This document shows, one piece after another, positions 1 through 6,801 of a DNA stretch of 6,801 bases (positions within the stretch are counted from its first letter, which is position 1; each line of letters opens with the position of its first letter). Location of the stretch: IMG/VR virus record IMGVR_UViG_2547132272_000022. The stretch is one strand, 5' to 3'. A program made the position numbers and the translations under genes. The DNA is from a virus. Taxonomy: Duplodnaviria > Heunggongvirae > Uroviricota > Caudoviricetes. Under the pieces are notes generated by a model. It saw only the letters and a list, made by a program, of their open reading frames with translations. It searched no databases and was not told the DNA's origin.

Positions 1-446
1 CCGATCTAAACTGCCTCTCCGTGGTTCAGTATGCAGTGGATGTTCTCGAAGTTGAACATATTATTATTTGTGGCCACTATGGTTGCGGCGGCGTGCAAGC
101 TGCTGTTGAAAACCCGGAACTGGGGCTTATCAACAACTGGCTGCTGCACATCCGCGATATCTGGTTCAAACATAGCTCATTGCTCGGCGAAATGCCGCCG
201 GAACGTCGTCTGGATACCCTGTGCGAACTGAACGTAATGGAACAGGTATATAACCTGGGTCACTCCACCATTATGCAATCAGCGTGGAAACGCGGGCAGA
301 AAGTCACCATTCACGGCTGGGCTTACGGCATTCACGACGGCTTACTGCGTGACCTGGATGTCACAGCCACCAACCGCGAAACCCTGGAGCAACGTTACCG
401 CCACGGGATTTCCAACCTCAAGCTGAAGCACATCAACCACAAATAA
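1..446 (+). CDS. can: Beta-class carbonic anhydrase, 3' portion only (5' end lies upstream of the window; reading frame enters at nt 3)
   Basis: The open frame runs from the window edge to TAA at 444..446. The translation (...[31 protein letters not shown]...LKHINHK) matches the C-terminal part of E. coli Can as I recall it, with a few substitutions. Homology is by memory, not computed. Confidence 0.93.
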
Positions 447-486: not shown

Positions 487-1023
487 TTACTCGTCCAGCA
501 GAATCACTTTGCCGATATACGGCAGATGGCGGTAACGCTGTGCGTAATCAATACCGTAACCCACCACAAACTCATCCGGGATCGAGAAACCGATAAATTC
601 TACCGGGACGTTCACTTCACGGCGGGACGGTTTATCCAGCAGCGTACAAATCGCCAGCGACTTCGGTTCGCGCAGGCTTAAGATTTCACGCACTTTCGAC
701 AGTGTATTACCCGAGTCGATGATATCTTCAACAATCAGCACGTCCTTGCCACGGATATCTTCATCCAGATCTTTGAGGATTTTCACATCACGGGTGGTGG
801 ACATGCCGCTACCGTAGCTGGAGGCGGTCATAAAGTCGACTTCATGAGATACCTGAACTTCACGGCACAGGTCCGCCATAAACATAAATGAGCCACGCAG
901 CAGGCCTACCAGCACCATATCGCTGCCGCTGTCTTTGTAACGCTCAGTAATCTGACGACCCAGTTCGGCGATACGCGCTTTAATCTCCGCTTCGGGGATC
1001 ATTACTTCTACATAATGTTTCAT
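487..1023 (-). CDS. hpt: Hypoxanthine phosphoribosyltransferase
   Basis: 178-aa ORF, near-identical to E. coli Hpt as recalled. It carries the PRPP-binding motif [16 protein letters not shown] at 1021..1023 (minus strand), stop TAA at 487..489. Confidence 0.96.
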
Positions 1024-1217
1024 CTATCAAATAACCAATTGATTATTAATGAAATAACCATCATTTTTCATGCTTAAAAAAACAATATTGATACACCGAT
1101 TGATACACAAACAGAGAACGGCACAAAAAAAATGACAGAAAACAAGAGAACAACAAATTGAGTCGGGATTGTACCCGATCCCATAAAAGCTCACTAACGC
1201 TTTTAATGTATCTTTGT

Positions 1218-1261
1218 TGTAGACACAGAGTAATTACTCGCCTATCCTCACTGTAGACACA
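1218..1261. promoter_or_regulatory. Two direct copies of TGTAGACACA immediately upstream of the antitoxin gene; candidate autoregulatory operator
   Basis: TGTAGACACA occurs at 1218..1227 and 1252..1261, the second copy ending 25 nt before the antitoxin ATG. The role is inferred from position only; type II antitoxins commonly bind repeats in their own promoter. Confidence 0.35.
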
Positions 1262-1285
1262 CAATAGATACAGGAGTTAACCCAC

Positions 1286-1534
1286 ATGCGCACACAGGTT
1301 GTATTGCAAAAATGGGGTAACAGCATTGCCCTTCGACTAACGGGAAACCTTAAAACCGTTCCGGGTTTTTCAGTGGGTGATATCGTCAACGTTGAAATTA
1401 GTGAAAAGGGGCTTTTTGTAGAAAAGCCTGCACGCCGTCGCCTGAGTGAAGCCGAATTACTCGCCGGGATAACGCCAGTTACAGCGCACGCGGACGAAAT
1501 TGCCACCCCATTCAATGAGGAGGTTGATTACTGA
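1286..1534 (+). CDS. MazE/PemI/ChpS-family antitoxin (AbrB/SpoVT-type fold)
   Basis: 82-aa ORF with RBS caggag 8 nt upstream of the ATG. The N-terminal KWGNS...R signature and overall pattern resemble MazE and ChpS. Its TGA stop overlaps the start of the next gene (TGATG at 1532..1536). Confidence 0.85.
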   Translation: MRTQVVLQKWGNSIALRLTGNLKTVPGFSVGDIVNVEISEKGLFVEKPARRRLSEAELLAGITPVTAHADEIATPFNEEVDY

Positions 1535-1878
1535 TGTTTGTACCTAAGCGTGGTGATATTTGCTGGCTGGATTTTGAGCCGCAGAAAGGAAAAGAGATCG
1601 GAAAGTATCGCCCGGCACTCATACTATCCCATGAGCAATATAACCGACTCACCGGGCTTGTCATATGCTGCCCCATAAGTACGAGCATACGAAATGCTCC
1701 CACAGAAGTTCCGGTAACAAATCTGGACGCCCCCAGCGTGGTAGCAACCACACTCATTCAAACCCTTGACTGGCGTCAGCGGAAAGCGCGCTTAATCACA
1801 GAGGCAGAAGATGGGGTATTTAATGATGTGCTTGAAAGAGTCATTACCCTGATTGGTGGAGAGCATCTGCTTAAGTAA
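1534..1878 (+). CDS. MazF/PemK/ChpB-family toxin (putative sequence-specific endoribonuclease)
   Basis: 114-aa ORF with RBS gaggagg 9 nt upstream. The translation aligns by eye with E. coli MazF (P.RGDI.W.DF.P.KG.E....RPALILS...YN..TG...CP.ST), and start/stop coupling with the upstream antitoxin is typical of type II TA operons. Confidence 0.88.
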   Translation: MFVPKRGDICWLDFEPQKGKEIGKYRPALILSHEQYNRLTGLVICCPISTSIRNAPTEVPVTNLDAPSVVATTLIQTLDWRQRKARLITEAEDGVFNDVLERVITLIGGEHLLK

Positions 1879-1881
1879 AAG

Positions 1882-1899
1882 GAGGGCTGAGAAGCCCTC
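1882..1899. terminator. Hairpin between the convergent toxin gene and gene B; possible bidirectional terminator
   Basis: Perfect 7-bp stem gagggct (1882..1888) / agccctc (1893..1899) with loop gaga, 4 nt after the toxin stop and 22 nt after the gene B stop. Flanking U-tracts are weak. Confidence 0.4.
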
Positions 1900-1921
1900 A
1901 ACGTTACCAGAAATTTCCTTG

Positions 1922-3193
1922 CTATTCTTTCCAGTCAATCCCATCCAGTAAGCACCCTGCCTCATATTGCCCCACCACCCAGTCAAGGTTACAGGACTCA
2001 TAGAACGCGAGGCGATTATACTGAGGCTCGTTTTTTACCAGGCCACGAACGGAACCACGCTGCCAGTACAGACACAGATTGGCAAGAGGTGTGATCAATA
2101 CAGCATTGTCCGGGAAAAATGGAACGGTTACAGCCGGGAGATTCCCCAGAACGGGATTTTTAATGATTTCCTCGTTAAGCAAAATTTCCTGATTCATCTG
2201 CGATGGATCAAGACGGTTTATCAAAGGCCATTGTTTACGGACCAGCGTATTGTGACTGCATACGGCCACAATGCCTTCCTGCCACTGTTCATCAATCATG
2301 GATTGCCAGGCATCCAGAACGAGCGCATCTATCGTATGGTGTGTACCGCGTGTATTACTTTTCGGTGATGAAACAGAAAGGCCGCTGATAACCCTTCCCG
2401 CCGCTTCATTTCGAAACTTCTGCAACCAGCCCACGCCGCAATCGTCACGCCCCGGATATGTTTTAGGGTCAGATTCGGCGGCATAATGTGTGCCGTTAAA
2501 ACCAATCTGAATTAAATCCAGCCATTTCCGGCGTTCAAAAGCGGCCCGCGCACTTCCTTCAAGGCCGTTTGCGGATGCGTGAGCATCGGCATTGTCGTAG
2601 CTCAACGCAAAATCAAAATTAACCTGCTCGCAGCGGTAGCCCCTTGAAACCAGTGAATGCGCCTGTAGTGGCGAACGGCGCTCGTGAGGTGGCGATGTAC
2701 GTGCCAACGGCCCCGAAGCGTCTACCAGCACAACCCGACCTGATATATCCGTAACAGGCACGGGCGTTATTTCAGCAAGGAAATTTGCCTGCCATCCACT
2801 GGCAAGCGTTGCACTCTGGCGGGGAACGGGTTCAACTTCTGACGAATAGCGCGCAGTGTCACCGGAAAAGTGCAAATCCTTCGGATGTTTTCCGGTTATC
2901 GACTCGATAGCGCAATTGAAAACCATCTGAGCCTGTTGATTTCGTTGTGATACAACAGAATCAGCAGTGCAATTATAACGCTCAATGCCGTCGTTATTAC
3001 CCCCACCGCTTGCAGTATGCAGGGTGTGAAGCTCAAGCTCACGCTCCAGTTTTTGATATTCATTGTCCAGCGCGCGACGCGTCTCATCGCTTATGCTTGC
3101 TGTGTTTGCTTTCAGGCGATTCCGGGACATTAATCCCCTGAGTCGGCTCACTATATCAGCGCCGTGCAAATGTGGAGTATTCAGACCGCCCAT
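1922..3193 (-). CDS. Hypothetical protein B (423 aa), distal gene of the two-gene operon; function unknown
   Basis: Long uninterrupted minus-strand ORF. The ATG at 3191..3193 overlaps the TAA stop of gene A by one base (TAATG), a classic translational-coupling arrangement. I recognise no Walker, nuclease, HEPN, reverse-transcriptase or nucleotidyltransferase motif by eye. An in-frame ATG further upstream (3334) would add 47 aa but overlaps gene A by 142 nt. Confidence 0.7.
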   Translation of the reverse strand: MGGLNTPHLHGADIVSRLRGLMSRNRLKANTASISDETRRALDNEYQKLERELELHTLHTASGGGNNDGIERYNCTADSVVSQRNQQAQMVFNCAIESITGKHPKDLHFSGDTARYSSEVEPVPRQSATLASGWQANFLAEITPVPVTDISGRVVLVDASGPLARTSPPHERRSPLQAHSLVSRGYRCEQVNFDFALSYDNADAHASANGLEGSARAAFERRKWLDLIQIGFNGTHYAAESDPKTYPGRDDCGVGWLQKFRNEAAGRVISGLSVSSPKSNTRGTHHTIDALVLDAWQSMIDEQWQEGIVAVCSHNTLVRKQWPLINRLDPSQMNQEILLNEEIIKNPVLGNLPAVTVPFFPDNAVLITPLANLCLYWQRGSVRGLVKNEPQYNRLAFYESCNLDWVVGQYEAGCLLDGIDWKE

Positions 3194-3903
3194 TACTGCC
3201 ACCCCCGGCAGAGTTCTCTGCCCTCCGCAAGGTCGCGCATTTTTTCTGGATTCTGTCGCGCCGCGCTCCATTGTACAGGTGAAGGGGCGTTCCTGATTGC
3301 GCGGCTTACCGAATCCGGGAGTTTCTCCGGGCAATAACGCAGCGGGCTGGAGGTGTCGCTTTCGGTATCGTTAATCCGGCCGCGAATCATCCCGACACTT
3401 TCAGCAGTATCTGTCGCTTTCAGTGTTTCGCATATTTTCTTTTCTGCGTTATACAGCGGCTGGCCAAGCAGCTCACATAAACCACGAATCAATAACAGAG
3501 CAGGGGTCAGCTCGTTAATCAGTTCGGGAAGTGCTTTTGCAAATATCTCTGCCCGCAACTTATTATCAATGCTTTCGTAAGCACAACCAGCCTCTGCCGC
3601 GTTATAACGACACTCCAGTAGCCTGATGCGCGCCTCATCATGCAGCACCCGCAGACGCTCAAGATTTTCTCGCGCCACACCCGCCTGAATGGATAATTTC
3701 GCGGAGGCTTCCGTTTTTACGCCCAGCGCAGACAGGATTGAGTTCTGCCAGTCACGATCGAGAGATTCCAGCTCCCCTTTCGTCTGTTCGATAGTTGCTT
3801 CCAGATTGGTGATTAATGATTCCTGTTCACTGAGTTTTGCCATGGCTGCATCAAACTGTGCTTTACATACCTGATGTTCGGCGCTTGCCTGAGTTATATC
3901 CAT
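3193..3903 (-). CDS. Hypothetical protein A (236 aa), predicted helical and coiled-coil-rich N-terminal half; function unknown
   Basis: Minus-strand ORF with RBS caggag 6 nt upstream of the ATG at 3901..3903. The N-terminal ~100 residues are rich in E, L, A, K and R in a heptad-like pattern. No catalytic motif recognised. Confidence 0.72.
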   Translation of the reverse strand: MDITQASAEHQVCKAQFDAAMAKLSEQESLITNLEATIEQTKGELESLDRDWQNSILSALGVKTEASAKLSIQAGVARENLERLRVLHDEARIRLLECRYNAAEAGCAYESIDNKLRAEIFAKALPELINELTPALLLIRGLCELLGQPLYNAEKKICETLKATDTAESVGMIRGRINDTESDTSSPLRYCPEKLPDSVSRAIRNAPSPVQWSAARQNPEKMRDLAEGRELCRGWQ

Positions 3904-4068
3904 TATTTGCTCCTGTAATACATTTTTTTACTTACGCCGATTTTTTCCATATTGCGTAATACATTCCAGCCGATTTTGTTCTCGTAATACGCTCACAATA
4001 CTGTTGTATTACGCTTTCTTATATCGCGGGTGTTAAATCCCGGCATAAACAATCAGGGAGGCAACACG
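3904..4068. promoter_or_regulatory. Divergent intergenic control region between gene A (-) and the small RHH-like gene (+), containing several copies of a CGTA-N-TACG palindromic motif
   Basis: GTAATAC occurs at 3915..3921, 3956..3962 and 3984..3990, and GTATTAC at 4006..4012. The copies at 3984 and 4006 form an inverted repeat. Promoters for both divergent units must lie here; exact -35/-10 boxes are not assigned. Confidence 0.4.
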
Positions 4069-4302
4069 ATGAAAAAACAAAAGAAAATGCGATGCGTATT
4101 ACGCTGTATTCGTATCCCGCACGAAATCGACCATAAAATAAATCAGATATGTCAGGACAGAGAGATGAACTACTCCCAGTGCGTCAGAATGTTTATCAGT
4201 CAGGGAATTAAGGCCGGGGAAACGCAGGAAGAAGACTGCAACGGGCGCAATGTAGCGGGGGATGTGTGGGCCTGGGCAAATGACCAGAACCACACGACGT
4301 AA
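4069..4302 (+). CDS. Small putative DNA-binding protein (77 aa), possibly ribbon-helix-helix type
   Basis: ATG at 4069 is preceded by a strong RBS agggagg (4055..4061). The N-terminus MKKQKKMRCVLRCIRIP (basic, then alternating hydrophobic residues) followed by two predicted helices fits an RHH/Arc-like pattern. This is my reading of the sequence, not a computed fold. The track ORF begins at 4030 but lacks an RBS there. Confidence 0.45.
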   Translation: MKKQKKMRCVLRCIRIPHEIDHKINQICQDREMNYSQCVRMFISQGIKAGETQEEDCNGRNVAGDVWAWANDQNHTT

Positions 4303-4352
4303 TACAGAAATAACGCAGCCGGTCACACTCGCTGGCTGTGTTATACAAATCA

Positions 4353-4535
4353 CTATGAAGTTTTCGACTTCCTGCGCTTAGTAATGCGTACAAACGACTC
4401 AAGCGTACAAAAACAAGCCCCACACTCAATATTATTGCACTGGTAATACGTTCTGTAGATGTTTTGTTCGTGTTCTTCCAACGAACGACCACGGGTGCGG
4501 GCTGAAGCGCCACAGGCCGGGCAAGGGAAAGACAT
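4353..4535 (-). CDS. Ogr/Delta-family zinc-finger protein (phage P2 late-gene activator homologue), 60 aa
   Basis: Translation MSFPCPACGASARTRGR...YYQCNNIECGACFCTLESFVR matches the Cys4 architecture and spacing of P2 Ogr (CPLC...HQCQNVNCSATFITYESVQR) as recalled. RBS aagaggag lies 6 nt upstream, and a perfect TATAAT -10 hexamer lies on the minus strand at 4570..4575. Confidence 0.75.
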   Translation of the reverse strand: MSFPCPACGASARTRGRSLEEHEQNIYRTYYQCNNIECGACFCTLESFVRITKRRKSKTS

Positions 4536-4897
4536 ATCACGCTCCTCTTACTGGTGTGAAATTTAACCTATTATATCTTCTGCCGCCCCCTCTGGCTGTA
4601 TCAAATAAACCCGCAGCAGTCGCCGCGTATTACGCACGGGCGCGCCGTTCCCATGCTCACTCGTCACATTCCCCGTATCAGTTCTCTCTTGCCGTAAGAA
4701 CGGCTCTGGCTGGCGATAAAACTAACCCGGTCGGGGCATTCCCGCAGCCTTTAGCGAAAATGTAATTTACCCCCTGAAACGCGTGCTGTTCCCCCGTCAC
4801 CTGCGCGCGAAAAACTCACCGTTTTTTGTGCACGCACGAAATCGCCCTCCGGGCGCGCCAGTACTGGGCCGGATGGGCAAAAAGTTACTCTAAAAAA

Positions 4898-4924
4898 TTG
4901 TGCAAATTTGTGCACTTTTGTGCA
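4898..4924. repeat. Three direct TTGTGCA repeats at an exact 10-bp period
   Basis: TTGTGCA at 4898..4904, 4908..4914 and 4918..4924, with a fourth TTGTGCAC at 4826..4833. The 10-bp spacing puts the copies on one helical face, as expected for cooperative protein binding. Confidence 0.6.
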
Positions 4925-5151
4925 GATGAACAATAGCGTCAAAAAGAGTGCTTTTGAGAGATTTTTTATGGCAACTGCGCCGCGTGTATTACGTTTTTTA
5001 CCATCCCCGCCGCGCATGTACATACTTCATTTTTCTGCCAAACAACAGGGCAACTCCCCGTGACTGACAGCCCCCAAAAAATCAATGATTGATGTTGCAT
5101 TTTTGTTAGAGGTCAGGCCAGTTGTTTTGGGGCTCTGCCTCATAATCCGGT

Positions 5152-5184
5152 GGGGGGTGCGCAAAGCGGTTACAACGGTTACAA
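5152..5184. repeat. Left arm of a 33-bp perfect inverted repeat
   Basis: ggggggtgcgcaaagcggttacaacggttacaa (5152..5184) is the exact reverse complement of 5433..5465. Confidence 0.9.
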
Positions 5185-5432
5185 CAGTCAAAAACACCAC
5201 TTAACAACATGATTTTAATGGATATTGTTTGTAACCGCTTTGCGGTTACACTGCGGTTACAACGGTTACAGGTTTAAAAAAGCACTTTATTATCAATCAA
5301 TTAAAAACTTAACCTGTAACCGCCTGTAACCTAACAAAACGGTTACATGTAACCGCGTTGTAACCGCTTTTGTAACTCATCCGACCAGTTATAATATATT
5401 GATATATAATACAAAAATAAGTAATTCTAAAT

Positions 5433-5468
5433 TTGTAACCGTTGTAACCGCTTTGCGCACCCCCCCCC
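5433..5468. repeat. Right arm of the 33-bp perfect inverted repeat, ending in a C9 homopolymer
   Basis: ttgtaaccgttgtaaccgctttgcgcac followed by nine C (5460..5468). The left arm has only six G, so the homopolymer is 3 nt longer on this side. Confidence 0.9.
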
Positions 5469-5722
5469 AAACTTTAGCGCGACCCTTTAAAATGTTAATT
5501 AAACTCACTTGCTCTGTCTCATTCTCATTAACTCTCTATGATTAAAATGTATCTCGTCATTATTTGACTCTTTCTGATAATCAGGGGAGGGAGAGCAAAA
5601 AAATTGATGGCGACACCGCTGCAATATGGCCACCATTGCATTGCTGTTACCGTTGGTTCTGGCCAACAAAAAAGGCCAGTGGAAAACTGACCTCTTTTGC
5701 TGTGAATGTGGCGTTCTGCGGG

Positions 5723-6724
5723 TTACTCTGCTGGTTCTTTTTGTTCAGTGAATGCTATGTTAGCTATCGGGTTAAACCTCATGGCATCTGCCAGATAGTC
5801 GGGAGAAAAATGCGCATAAGTCATCGTTTGCTGAATAGTGGCATGGCCCAGAATCCGTTGCAGGGTAACGATGTTTCCCCCGTTCATCATGAAATGCGTG
5901 GCGAACGTATGACGCATCACATGAGTCGCCTGCCCTTTTGGCAAATCAGGCTTCACCTCCTGGAGGATCTCGCGAAACCGGAGATAATCGACCTCGTACA
6001 GCGGCCCAGTTCGGCAGGTTTTAATCAGCGAGAGCACAGCATCAGACACCGGAACCGAACGGGACTTCCCGTTCTTGGTGTTGAAGAACGTCACGCGATT
6101 ACCGACGATATGCTCCCCGCGTAATTCCGTCGCCTCACCCCACCGCGCCCCCGTGGAGAGACACAGAATGGCGACACGACGCGCATCACCTTCGAGTCGC
6201 TCAAGAAGCCGCTCAATCTCATCATCAGAAAGAAAGGCCATCTCTGTATTCTGAATTTTTAGCTTACGTATACTGCGCACGGGGTTCGGGTTGTGAAAGA
6301 CCCCTGCTTCAATCAACACCGTGAACATGGTAGACAGAACGCATAAGTCACGATTAATACTGGACGGCATTAATCCGGCCTGTAATTTCTCTGACCGATA
6401 CTCAAGCATAAATTTTCGCGTCATCTGGTTGGCGCGCGGATCTCCCATTTCACGAATCACTTTCTCCAGCCGGATCCTGTAGGTATCGCCGTAAGCCTGA
6501 TTACACCCGTCAAGCATCCACCATGTATCAAGCAACTCTGATAATCGCCGCCGATCAGCAGGTTTAGCTAGCCATGGGTTATTATGGAAATTCTGCAAAA
6601 CATATTGTTCGAACTTCTCTGCACTTCCTTTCCTGGTAAAAATTTTACGTATCCGTTTGCCGTATGTCCCTTGCGGCCTGATATCTAGCAACCATCTTCC
6701 ATCATCCATCTTTCTAATCGACAT
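5723..6724 (-). CDS. int: Tyrosine recombinase / phage integrase, P2 Int-like
   Basis: The translation aligns along its length with phage P2 integrase as I recall it (MSIRKMDDGRWLLDIRPQGTYGKRIR vs P2 MAIKKLDDGRYEVDIRPTGRNGKRIR; ILCLSTGARWGEA; catalytic HxxR in VMRHTFATHF and the Tyr region LQRILGHATIQQTMTYAHF). I place the start at ATG 6722..6724, which has RBS aaggagag 9 nt upstream and matches the P2 Int N-terminus. The track ORF extends 12 codons further to 6760 without an RBS. Confidence 0.93.
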   Translation of the reverse strand: MSIRKMDDGRWLLDIRPQGTYGKRIRKIFTRKGSAEKFEQYVLQNFHNNPWLAKPADRRRLSELLDTWWMLDGCNQAYGDTYRIRLEKVIREMGDPRANQMTRKFMLEYRSEKLQAGLMPSSINRDLCVLSTMFTVLIEAGVFHNPNPVRSIRKLKIQNTEMAFLSDDEIERLLERLEGDARRVAILCLSTGARWGEATELRGEHIVGNRVTFFNTKNGKSRSVPVSDAVLSLIKTCRTGPLYEVDYLRFREILQEVKPDLPKGQATHVMRHTFATHFMMNGGNIVTLQRILGHATIQQTMTYAHFSPDYLADAMRFNPIANIAFTEQKEPAE

Positions 6725-6801
6725 ACTTAAGATCTCTCCTTGTAACTGAATATCCGGCATTTCAGCACTTCCGGCTCTCTGGCCTCGGCTACTCCTTTTC
6801 C

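Follow-up and report, generated by a model that had tools for sequence, protein, structure and literature searches.

What is the foreign DNA that follows can and hpt in the Caudoviricetes record IMGVR_UViG_2547132272_000022, and why does it hold an integrase and an Ogr/Delta-type activator close together? The stretch analysed here (the window) is 6,801 nt long; its best match in Escherichia coli is strain E9 (99.3% identity), and it corresponds to the left portion of the DNA inserted between hpt and gcd. An earlier reading of the letters alone (the sequence-only reading) had listed a toxin-antitoxin module, an operon of unknown function, phage-type regulators and a P2-like integrase where a short spacer and gcd were expected. 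All of these features are present, and the hpt-gcd spacer of E. coli K-12, which is the empty site, measures only 205 bp. That reading had set aside the end of a P2 prophage in favour of either a small satellite-like element or a rearranged prophage remnant, of which the former has held up and the latter has not. In our judgement this is probably a 13-kb integrative satellite, related to P4, which parasitises P88-like phages of the P2 family and redirects their assembly with a capsid protein of its own and a Sid-like scaffold. The mechanism is deduced from anatomy.

The sequence-only reading saw no structural or replication genes between the integrase and Ogr-like genes, yet a structural-gene homologue is present in the island: the operon of unknown function encodes a paralogue of the P2 major capsid protein gpN and a putative homologue of P4 Sid. 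The capsid paralogue matches the gpN chain 7jw1_A (E 1e-54, residues 110-419) and consists of a P2 gpN-like HK97-fold core with an N-terminal extension of about 110 amino acids (aa), helical or disordered, and a truncated C-terminus. It passes the Pfam domain cut-off, but since it scores 133.8 bits against the NCBIfam equivalog TIGR01551 (cut-off 219.65) it is to be regarded as a homologue and not as an equivalog. Its closest kin form a clade of 393-497-aa proteins from E. coli, Salmonella, Klebsiella, Erwinia, Pectobacterium and Symbiopectobacterium, which are 42-52% identical to the query, as compared with 33-41% for genuine phage capsid proteins; the query has 34-35% identity to P2 gpN and likewise to P88-like gpN, two proteins that share 41% with each other. 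Members of the clade share an N-terminal extension of 70-150 aa (a conserved pair of helices and a linker that is variable and of low complexity), a DCGVGW motif, a shortened surface loop and the truncated C-terminus. The ratio of nonsynonymous to synonymous substitution rates (dN/dS; this and all later values within E. coli) is 0.14 for the capsid-like and 0.25 for the sid-like gene, and every gene tested is under purifying selection.

These properties bear on the remnant hypothesis, in which a decayed or rearranged P2-like prophage (capsid, ogr and int) would lie beside an unrelated integrative island. The three genes do have P2-family homologues, and when P2 genes were sought (Q, P, O, M, L, tail, A, B and lysis) only homologues of N, ogr and int were present. 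We nevertheless consider it very improbable, as the capsid paralogue is 34-38% identical to any phage gpN and falls in a separate, satellite-only clade, the gene order, which includes no further P2 genes, is kept across genera and attachment (att) sites, selection is purifying in every gene tested, and a single direct repeat brackets the 13 kb.

Searches of the 236-aa protein encoded upstream of the capsid paralogue against Pfam, PHROGs, NCBIfam, PADLOC and PDB sequences returned nothing usable, and an exhaustive HMMER search of 1.84 billion representatives found just 25 relatives. AlphaFold2, supplied with a six-sequence alignment, gave a confident all-helical model (predicted local distance difference test, pLDDT, 90.9). 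Foldseek comparison of the model with 350,542 PDB chains placed P4 Sid (7jw1_E, E 0.096) first and P4 Psu (3rx6, E 0.14) second, both with weak E-values. A 17-sequence profile of these relatives is colinear with residues 30-140 of P4 Sid (probability 85%, E 6.4e-6), a span that takes in the conserved W...GGV motif, and does not align with Psu (hhalign E 0.11). We therefore hold with moderate confidence that the protein is homologous to Sid, and infer that it would serve as an external scaffold.

The control region of this operon is also of P2/P4 type. No exact TGT-N12-ACA sequence exists between 3850 and 5200 of the window; the candidate activator site was found by alignment to relatives, allowing one mismatch, and its dyad is centred 85 bp upstream of the sid-like ATG. 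Perfect dyads (TTGTTGT...ACAACAA) occupy the homologous position in the Salmonella relative (92 bp before the ATG) and in another E. coli element, L012 (81 bp), and in P4 the dyads of Psid are at 81 and 43 bp. The CxxC...CxxxxC pattern of the Ogr-like protein aligns with P2 Ogr and P4 Delta; its sequence is identical in the copy carried by E. coli ETEC1748, although synonymous divergence is 0.05. Superimposed on this is a second motif, GTATTACG/CGTAATAC, with seven copies in place of the 0.14 expected (none of 200 shuffles reached seven). The copies cluster at the divergent promoters and upstream of ogr, one of them within the spacer of the dyad, and the same intergenic regions of the Salmonella element contain a like cluster. 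The 77-aa product of the divergent gene gave weak matches to RelB/DinJ, VapB and the CopG-type ORF56 (E 0.007-0.03), and a gene for 59-77 aa stands in the same place and orientation in loci L003, L006, L010 and L012. This ribbon-helix-helix (RHH) protein is probably the repressor that binds GTATTACG.

Between ogr and the integrase gene of the window (int2) lie 1187 bp with no credible gene, in keeping with the distance of about 1.2 kb reported earlier. As that reading had also remarked, the arrangement is not that of P2, since both genes are on the minus strand here and in P2 ogr and int converge on attP. Part of this gap aligns with an intergenic block of vB_EcoM-569R5, a P2-like prophage of the P88-like kind, at 81% identity over 171 bp (E 4e-37). 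It matches 32 phage records, mostly P88-like (Xuanwuvirus), and all those identified belong to the P2 family (Peduoviridae). In the linear record of P88_4B11 the block extends across the two ends and lies approximately 290 bp from the portal gene; this is the position of cos in P2, and we read the block as a cos region. Within it GGTGACGGGGGAACAGCAC (4783-4801) agrees with the P2 cohesive-end 19-mer at 14 of 19 positions. The P2/P4 19-mer itself was not found in the element at up to three mismatches, and BLAST with the P2/P4 cos flanks produced chance 11-mers only; the comparison with the prophage alone brought the block to light. Of 5426 E. coli genomes, 1163 contain a cos-like block. Co-occurrence supports a link to such helpers: a further cos-like locus is present in 39 of the 56 satellite genomes listed, STEC379 and JP538 among them, as compared with 1107 of the 5370 remaining genomes (odds ratio 8.8, Fisher p 6e-15). 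The 85% identity of the int2 product to the Int of the same phage group points the same way, and so does size, since the 13.0 kb of the element amount to about 0.36 of a 36-kb helper genome, as P4 does relative to P2. A 90-aa RefSeq "hypothetical protein" at 4751-5023, which has no family match, overlaps the cos-like block; this open reading frame (ORF) is probably spurious.

A coherent life cycle can be proposed from these parts. In a lysogen a GTATTACG-binding repressor, probably the RHH protein, would cover the late promoter. Once a helper is active, Ogr/Delta-type activators, be they the helper's or the satellite's, would fire this promoter and so drive the operon for the Sid-like external scaffold and the satellite-specific gpN paralogue, whose N-terminal helical extension may resemble a fused scaffold. 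Together the two proteins would build small capsids fitting 13 kb, or bias assembly towards them. The portal, protease/scaffold, terminase, tails and lysis functions would be the helper's, and the satellite genome would be packaged through its cos site. If a helper capsid variant no longer responds to Sid, a satellite with its own Sid-compatible capsid protein might be independent of that variant or resistant to it.

Alignment with K-12, as the sequence-only reading had advised, placed the left breakpoint at 1023/1024, and extension to the right revealed a 24-bp direct repeat that brackets 12,990 bp; the foreign DNA at 1024-6801 is thus the left 5.8 kb of the element. The attR core (25990-26013 of locus L001) is the K-12 empty-site sequence, CATTACTTCTACAGTATGTTTCAT. 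When attL, attR and K-12 are compared, the sequence outside the repeat diverges at once, and a Salmonella relative inserted at hpt has the identical core. A tRNA search showed no tRNA gene at the hpt site. The insertion at this locus is real, but it lies inside the 5' end of hpt and not, as was supposed, beside it: the insertion point is the first 24 nt of the gene, and the element donates a replacement start. Its copy of the core alters Hpt Thr4 to Tyr, a change also seen with the Salmonella relative. Upon integration the hpt promoter region and the first eight codons are all replaced by element DNA. Since the original promoter region is lost, hpt expression must now use an element-borne promoter, for which a sigma-70-like match on the minus strand (1071-1042) is weak evidence. 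The left arm contains TTGATACAC repeats at 1088-1096 and 1100-1108, and a matching pair, found in the Salmonella element too, lies beside the terminal integrase (L001 25845-25866); situated just inside both ends, these are likely arm sites for that enzyme.

Table 1. Annotated features of the 6,801-nt window, numbered from its first nucleotide
Feature	Position	Strand	Remarks
can (3' part)	21-446	+	Partial; from ORF list and Pfam scan
hpt	487-1023	-	
attL core	1000-1023		24-bp direct repeat corresponding to hpt codons 1-8; reads CATTACTTCTACATAATGTTTCAT
Left arm	1024-1285		Now the DNA upstream of hpt
MazE/MazF-type toxin-antitoxin	1286-1534 and 1534-1878	+	Toxin matches PemK/MazF (PemK_toxin E 4e-25); RefSeq annotation
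Bidirectional terminator	1882-1899		
Major capsid paralogue, 423 aa	1922-3193	-	Phage_cap_P2, PF05125, E 3.5e-72
Putative distant Sid homologue, 236 aa, all-helical	3193-3903	-	Stop overlaps start codon of capsid paralogue
GTATTACG/CGTAATAC motif, seven exact copies	3955-4993		Predicted operator
P2/P4-type late-promoter activator dyad (TGT-N12-ACA class)	3980-3997	-	Reads TGTGAGCGTATTACGAGA; one mismatch
RHH-like regulator, 77 aa	4069-4302	+	Divergent from sid-like operon
Ogr/Delta zinc-finger activator, 60 aa	4353-4535	-	PF04606, E 3.3e-11, 43.4 bits (cut-off 26.3)
cos-like block	4759-4925	-	Four or five TGCACAA repeats
Predicted iteron-rich origin/crr-like region	5149-5468		About 14 GGTTACA units in both orientations; AT-rich centre
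Internal P2-type tyrosine integrase (int2), 333 aa	5723-6724	-	Int_N and Phage_integrase; catalytic residues intact
alpha-like primase-helicase, 3' end (last 25 codons)	6727-6801	-	889 aa in the full element

Outside the window the gene order is primase, four small ORFs, an Icd-like gene, AlpA, a 352-aa protein, a terminal integrase and finally gcd. The integrase of the window, int2, is thus internal, and the end of the island is marked by this second, P4-type enzyme of 403 aa (Arm-DNA-bind_3 and Phage_integrase domains), which adjoins gcd and integrates the element. The 889-aa primase has Toprim_2/3 and weak DUF5906 matches, and its relatives display Zn_Ribbon_Prim, Toprim_3 and DUF927. The AlpA/Vis regulator (PF05930, E 3.3e-7; L001 23113-23433) is 32% identical to P4 orf88. 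Rfam recognized a C4 antisense RNA (RF01695, 72.8 bits versus a gathering score of 45) at L001 22619-22826, accompanied by isrK and a1/b1 target motifs, all upstream of the icd-like gene; this C4/Icd locus is an RNA immunity system of the P1/P4 type. Psu (PF07455) was unmatched by Pfam in every island protein, and Epsilon/Ash (PF10554) was not detected at E <= 0.01 in the E. coli hpt element, whereas Ash is present in the Klebsiella, Erwinia and L012 relatives. Terminase, portal, protease and head-tail connector genes were neither annotated nor detected in the 13 kb, and tail and lysis genes are likewise missing. A conserved protein of 210-352 aa (L001 23553-24611), matchless in Pfam, NCBIfam and PADLOC, is encoded between the terminal integrase and AlpA. 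Among relatives in which the integrase end was captured, L010/L011, L012 and probably L006 have a gene at this position.

The sid-like/capsid-like/ogr module was found in 57 of 5426 complete E. coli genomes (about 1%), 48 of which contain at least 80% of the window. The sequence-only reading had asked whether the genes at 1286-4535 might be present in all Escherichia; this frequency marks them as accessory. In ETEC1748 (L014 11365-23875) the backbone from MazEF to the primase and Icd is inserted at a tRNA-Arg gene next to yfdC; its terminal integrase is a different one, and the 352-aa gene is missing. Two decayed copies were also seen: in K_EC180 (L016) a deletion has fused ogr to int2, and in TK3046 (NZ_AP044762.1) IS100 (istA/istB) is inserted in the capsid-paralogue region.

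The neighbourhoods of five lineages share one gene order, which begins with an integrase, an unknown gene, AlpA or a helix-turn-helix protein, sometimes Ash, small ORFs and the primase, and continues with an optional P2-type integrase, iterons, optional cargo, Ogr, the small divergent gene, the protein of about 240 aa, the capsid homologue, again optional cargo, and the att site. Before the primase, the Erwinia relative also encodes domains of the P4 epsilon type ("Derepression") and of the orf106 type (DUF5375). It had been suggested that the integrase might belong to a separate prophage with an att junction between 4536 and 5722. None is found there, since the order primase-int2-origin-cos-ogr-sid-like-capsid-like recurs not only at hpt but also at tRNA-Arg and, in other genera, at further sites, and one repeat brackets the whole. 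Two tandem elements joined at 4536-5722 were also considered, and rejected.

Exchangeable cargo occupies two slots, one behind the capsid paralogue and one behind the primase, which behave like the defence hotspots of P4. The position of MazEF is occupied elsewhere by GmrSD and type I restriction-modification (Erwinia) or by hok (another E. coli element). In detail, the Erwinia cargo (L010 12109-21308) comprises GmrSD and type I restriction-modification with AAA_13, that of Salmonella (L006 7031-7987) HicAB and a MazE-like gene, and that of the E. coli element (L012 12034-12174) hok/gef.

Several points weigh against a P4-related satellite of P88-like phages. Identity to P4 proteins is very low (Int 22%, Vis 32%), BLAST found none for Sid, Psu, Delta or epsilon, the P4 alpha domain PF03288 was unmatched by Pfam in the primase, and tblastn to P4 alpha gave one 27-aa match only. 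The dyad of the window has AGA for ACA, and the match is poorer again in the relatives from Klebsiella and Erwinia. The classic 19-mer of P2 and P4 is missing. The AlphaFold2 model of the capsid paralogue is poor (pLDDT 59) and thus supports no statement on the capsid lattice. The counts behind the co-occurrence of satellites with further cos-like loci ignore clonality, and the extra loci, uninspected, could be other satellites. Strain E9, the genome closest to the window, is without a second locus of this kind.

This last observation suits an alternative in which the element is an interference or defence island that is rarely or never packaged, its capsid paralogue and Sid-like protein serving mainly to poison the capsids of incoming P2-family phages and so to shield the host population. 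Both proteins would then be aimed at capsid assembly, the adjacent slots hold toxin-antitoxin and defence cargo (MazEF, HicAB, GmrSD and type I restriction-modification), and P4 Sid and SaPIbov5 Ccm themselves strongly inhibit helper growth (PMC6893505). Even so, a conserved helper-type cos, a replication module and a genome of one-third helper size are expected only if the element is packaged, and near-identical backbones with different att sites and integrases, together with relatives in five genera, point to ongoing horizontal transfer. Interference and piracy can, moreover, coexist. On balance we think a pure defence island unlikely and retain the satellite as the better explanation.

The region between cos and int2 contains the repeats which the sequence-only reading had described as lying near the integrase. 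A 36-nt inverted repeat, 97% complementary (5149-5184 and 5433-5468) and with 248 bp between its arms, bounds the iterons. Iteron arrays likewise follow the primase in Salmonella (GGTGTAACA), where there is no internal integrase, and in Klebsiella (GTGGGAACA), and both have the same mirror-symmetric layout with arms of 65 nt and 77 nt, respectively. The crr of P4 is similarly placed after alpha. To judge from these sequences the region is a putative replication origin which co-varies with the primase, and not an integrase or att site.

The product of int2 is 51% identical to P2 Int. A closer match is the Int of P2-like prophages that occupy a site next to dmsA (83% nucleotide and 85% aa identity); the int2 of the Klebsiella satellite is 80% identical to P2 Int. 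The alpha stop codon is followed after two bases by the int2 ATG, which is preceded by an AAGGAG ribosome-binding site, an arrangement that predicts translational coupling of int2 to the primase gene. Homology to phages ends within int2, short of attP; no cognate phage attP lies beside the gene, and a P2-type attP is absent. Between hpt satellites otherwise about 98% identical, the central 720 bp (5954-6674) have been swapped for an allele with 55% aa identity, leaving the downstream DNA unchanged (about 98% identical). This central part is a recombination hotspot, and the alleles are similar to integrases from different phages of the P2 family, one for each allele. Synonymous divergence is 0.59 in int2 versus 0.07 in the capsid-like gene, with a dN/dS of 0.07-0.09. 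The gene is thus an orphan that is frequently exchanged and under selection, with no adjacent cognate site.

One might suppose that int2 together with the 36-nt inverted repeats makes up a DNA switch that can invert, or else a second attP for integration at the helper attB, as the gene lies 254 bp from the repeat and is intact and under purifying selection. We regard this as improbable, more so than a defence island: the Salmonella relative has the same inverted iteron layout with no internal integrase, three E. coli copies are colinear across the segment with no inversion, int2 alleles are swapped while the DNA downstream stays about 98% identical, and the homology to P2 and P2-like prophages stops inside int, before attP. 

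The most economical idea for int2 is that its product, expressed along with the primase, most likely works in trans at the att sites of the helper; this is also the weakest step of the mechanism. A match between the int2 allele and the integrase of a resident prophage in the same genome was not supported, only 11 of 354 genomes having two such places. A broader proposal, which we hold to be less likely than not, is that these elements form a new lineage of P2-family satellites. Where P4 remodels the capsid protein of its helper with Sid and Psu, this lineage would have gone over to a Sid-matched capsid protein of its own and would thereby be immune to "sir"-type escape mutations in the helper. 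Its orphan, often exchanged integrase of helper type, expressed with the primase, would act in trans at the att sites of helpers and might, for instance, excise P2-like prophages that are otherwise non-inducible or regulate their integration.

Comparison with known systems places the element nearest to P4 and the P4-like satellites (Moura de Sousa and Rocha; SatelliteFinder). It shares with them a size of 11-13 kb, a terminal Arm-DNA-bind_3 integrase, AlpA/Vis, C4/CI-type antisense RNA immunity with icd, a primase of Toprim plus superfamily 3 (SF3) helicase followed by iterons, an Ogr/Delta activator, a predicted TGT-N12-ACA late promoter, a putative Sid-family protein, cargo hotspots, a cos-like region copied from a P2-family helper, and the lack of packaging, tail and lysis genes. 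Unlike P4, it has no Psu and instead a gpN paralogue after the sid-like gene; its activator is a separate single-finger gene outside the operon; its Sid-like protein is recognizable by fold and profile only; the terminal integrase and att site are on the AlpA side and not beside crr; cos is of the P88 type and not the P2/P4 19-mer; and an extra P2-type integrase follows the primase. Of the seven markers in the P4-like set of SatelliteFinder only three can be scored here (integrase, Delta/Ogr PF04606 and AlpA PF05930), and consequently the element has probably gone uncounted in published P4-like censuses.

With SaPIbov5 (Ccm), PmCI172 and EcCICFT073 it has in common a diverged paralogue of the helper HK97-fold capsid protein in the helper-exploitation module. 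Size redirection by a capsid homologue is known for SaPIbov5 Ccm and possibly for PmCI172, and Ccm enters small capsids yet still requires the helper capsid protein (PMC6893505, PMC6092414). In contrast to these Ccm-type phage-inducible chromosomal islands (PICIs), the present element would exploit P2-type myoviruses of Enterobacterales, and its paralogue, for which the function is a prediction, is paired with a Sid-type scaffold and Ogr/Delta late control. As with the capsid-forming PICIs (cf-PICIs), the satellite would make at least part of its own capsid; those islands encode capsid, portal, protease, connectors, TerS and TerL, whereas here there are only the capsid paralogue and the scaffold-like protein. 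The int-attP-ogr region of P2 is similar in having Int (51% aa identity) and Ogr homologues, and differs in that here int and ogr point in the same direction, are separated by cos and the origin, and have no P2-type attP between them. P4-like elements in general share very little with phages (PMC8628076). No P2-family satellite with a gpN paralogue or an internal helper-type integrase is described in the literature searched, which included the P4-like censuses (PMC8628076, PMC10085698, PMC13586616).

A sister lineage with a capsid paralogue in place of Psu, a Sid recognizable at the level of fold and P88-like helpers would escape marker-based counts. Molecular piracy has its textbook example in P2 and P4, and satellites of the P4 kind are found in a large fraction of Enterobacterales. 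Such a lineage would offer a natural experiment in the evolution of capsid size redirection, standing between P4, which has no capsid gene, the Ccm-type PICIs and the cf-PICIs. An orphan, allele-swapping helper-type integrase has no counterpart explanation in current satellite biology, and if int2 does act in trans it would represent a new class of satellite-helper interaction. For the host, finally, the element rewrites the promoter and N-terminus of hpt, a housekeeping gene, and brings exchangeable toxin-antitoxin and defence cargo into livestock-associated enterotoxigenic (ETEC) and Shiga toxin-producing (STEC) E. coli.

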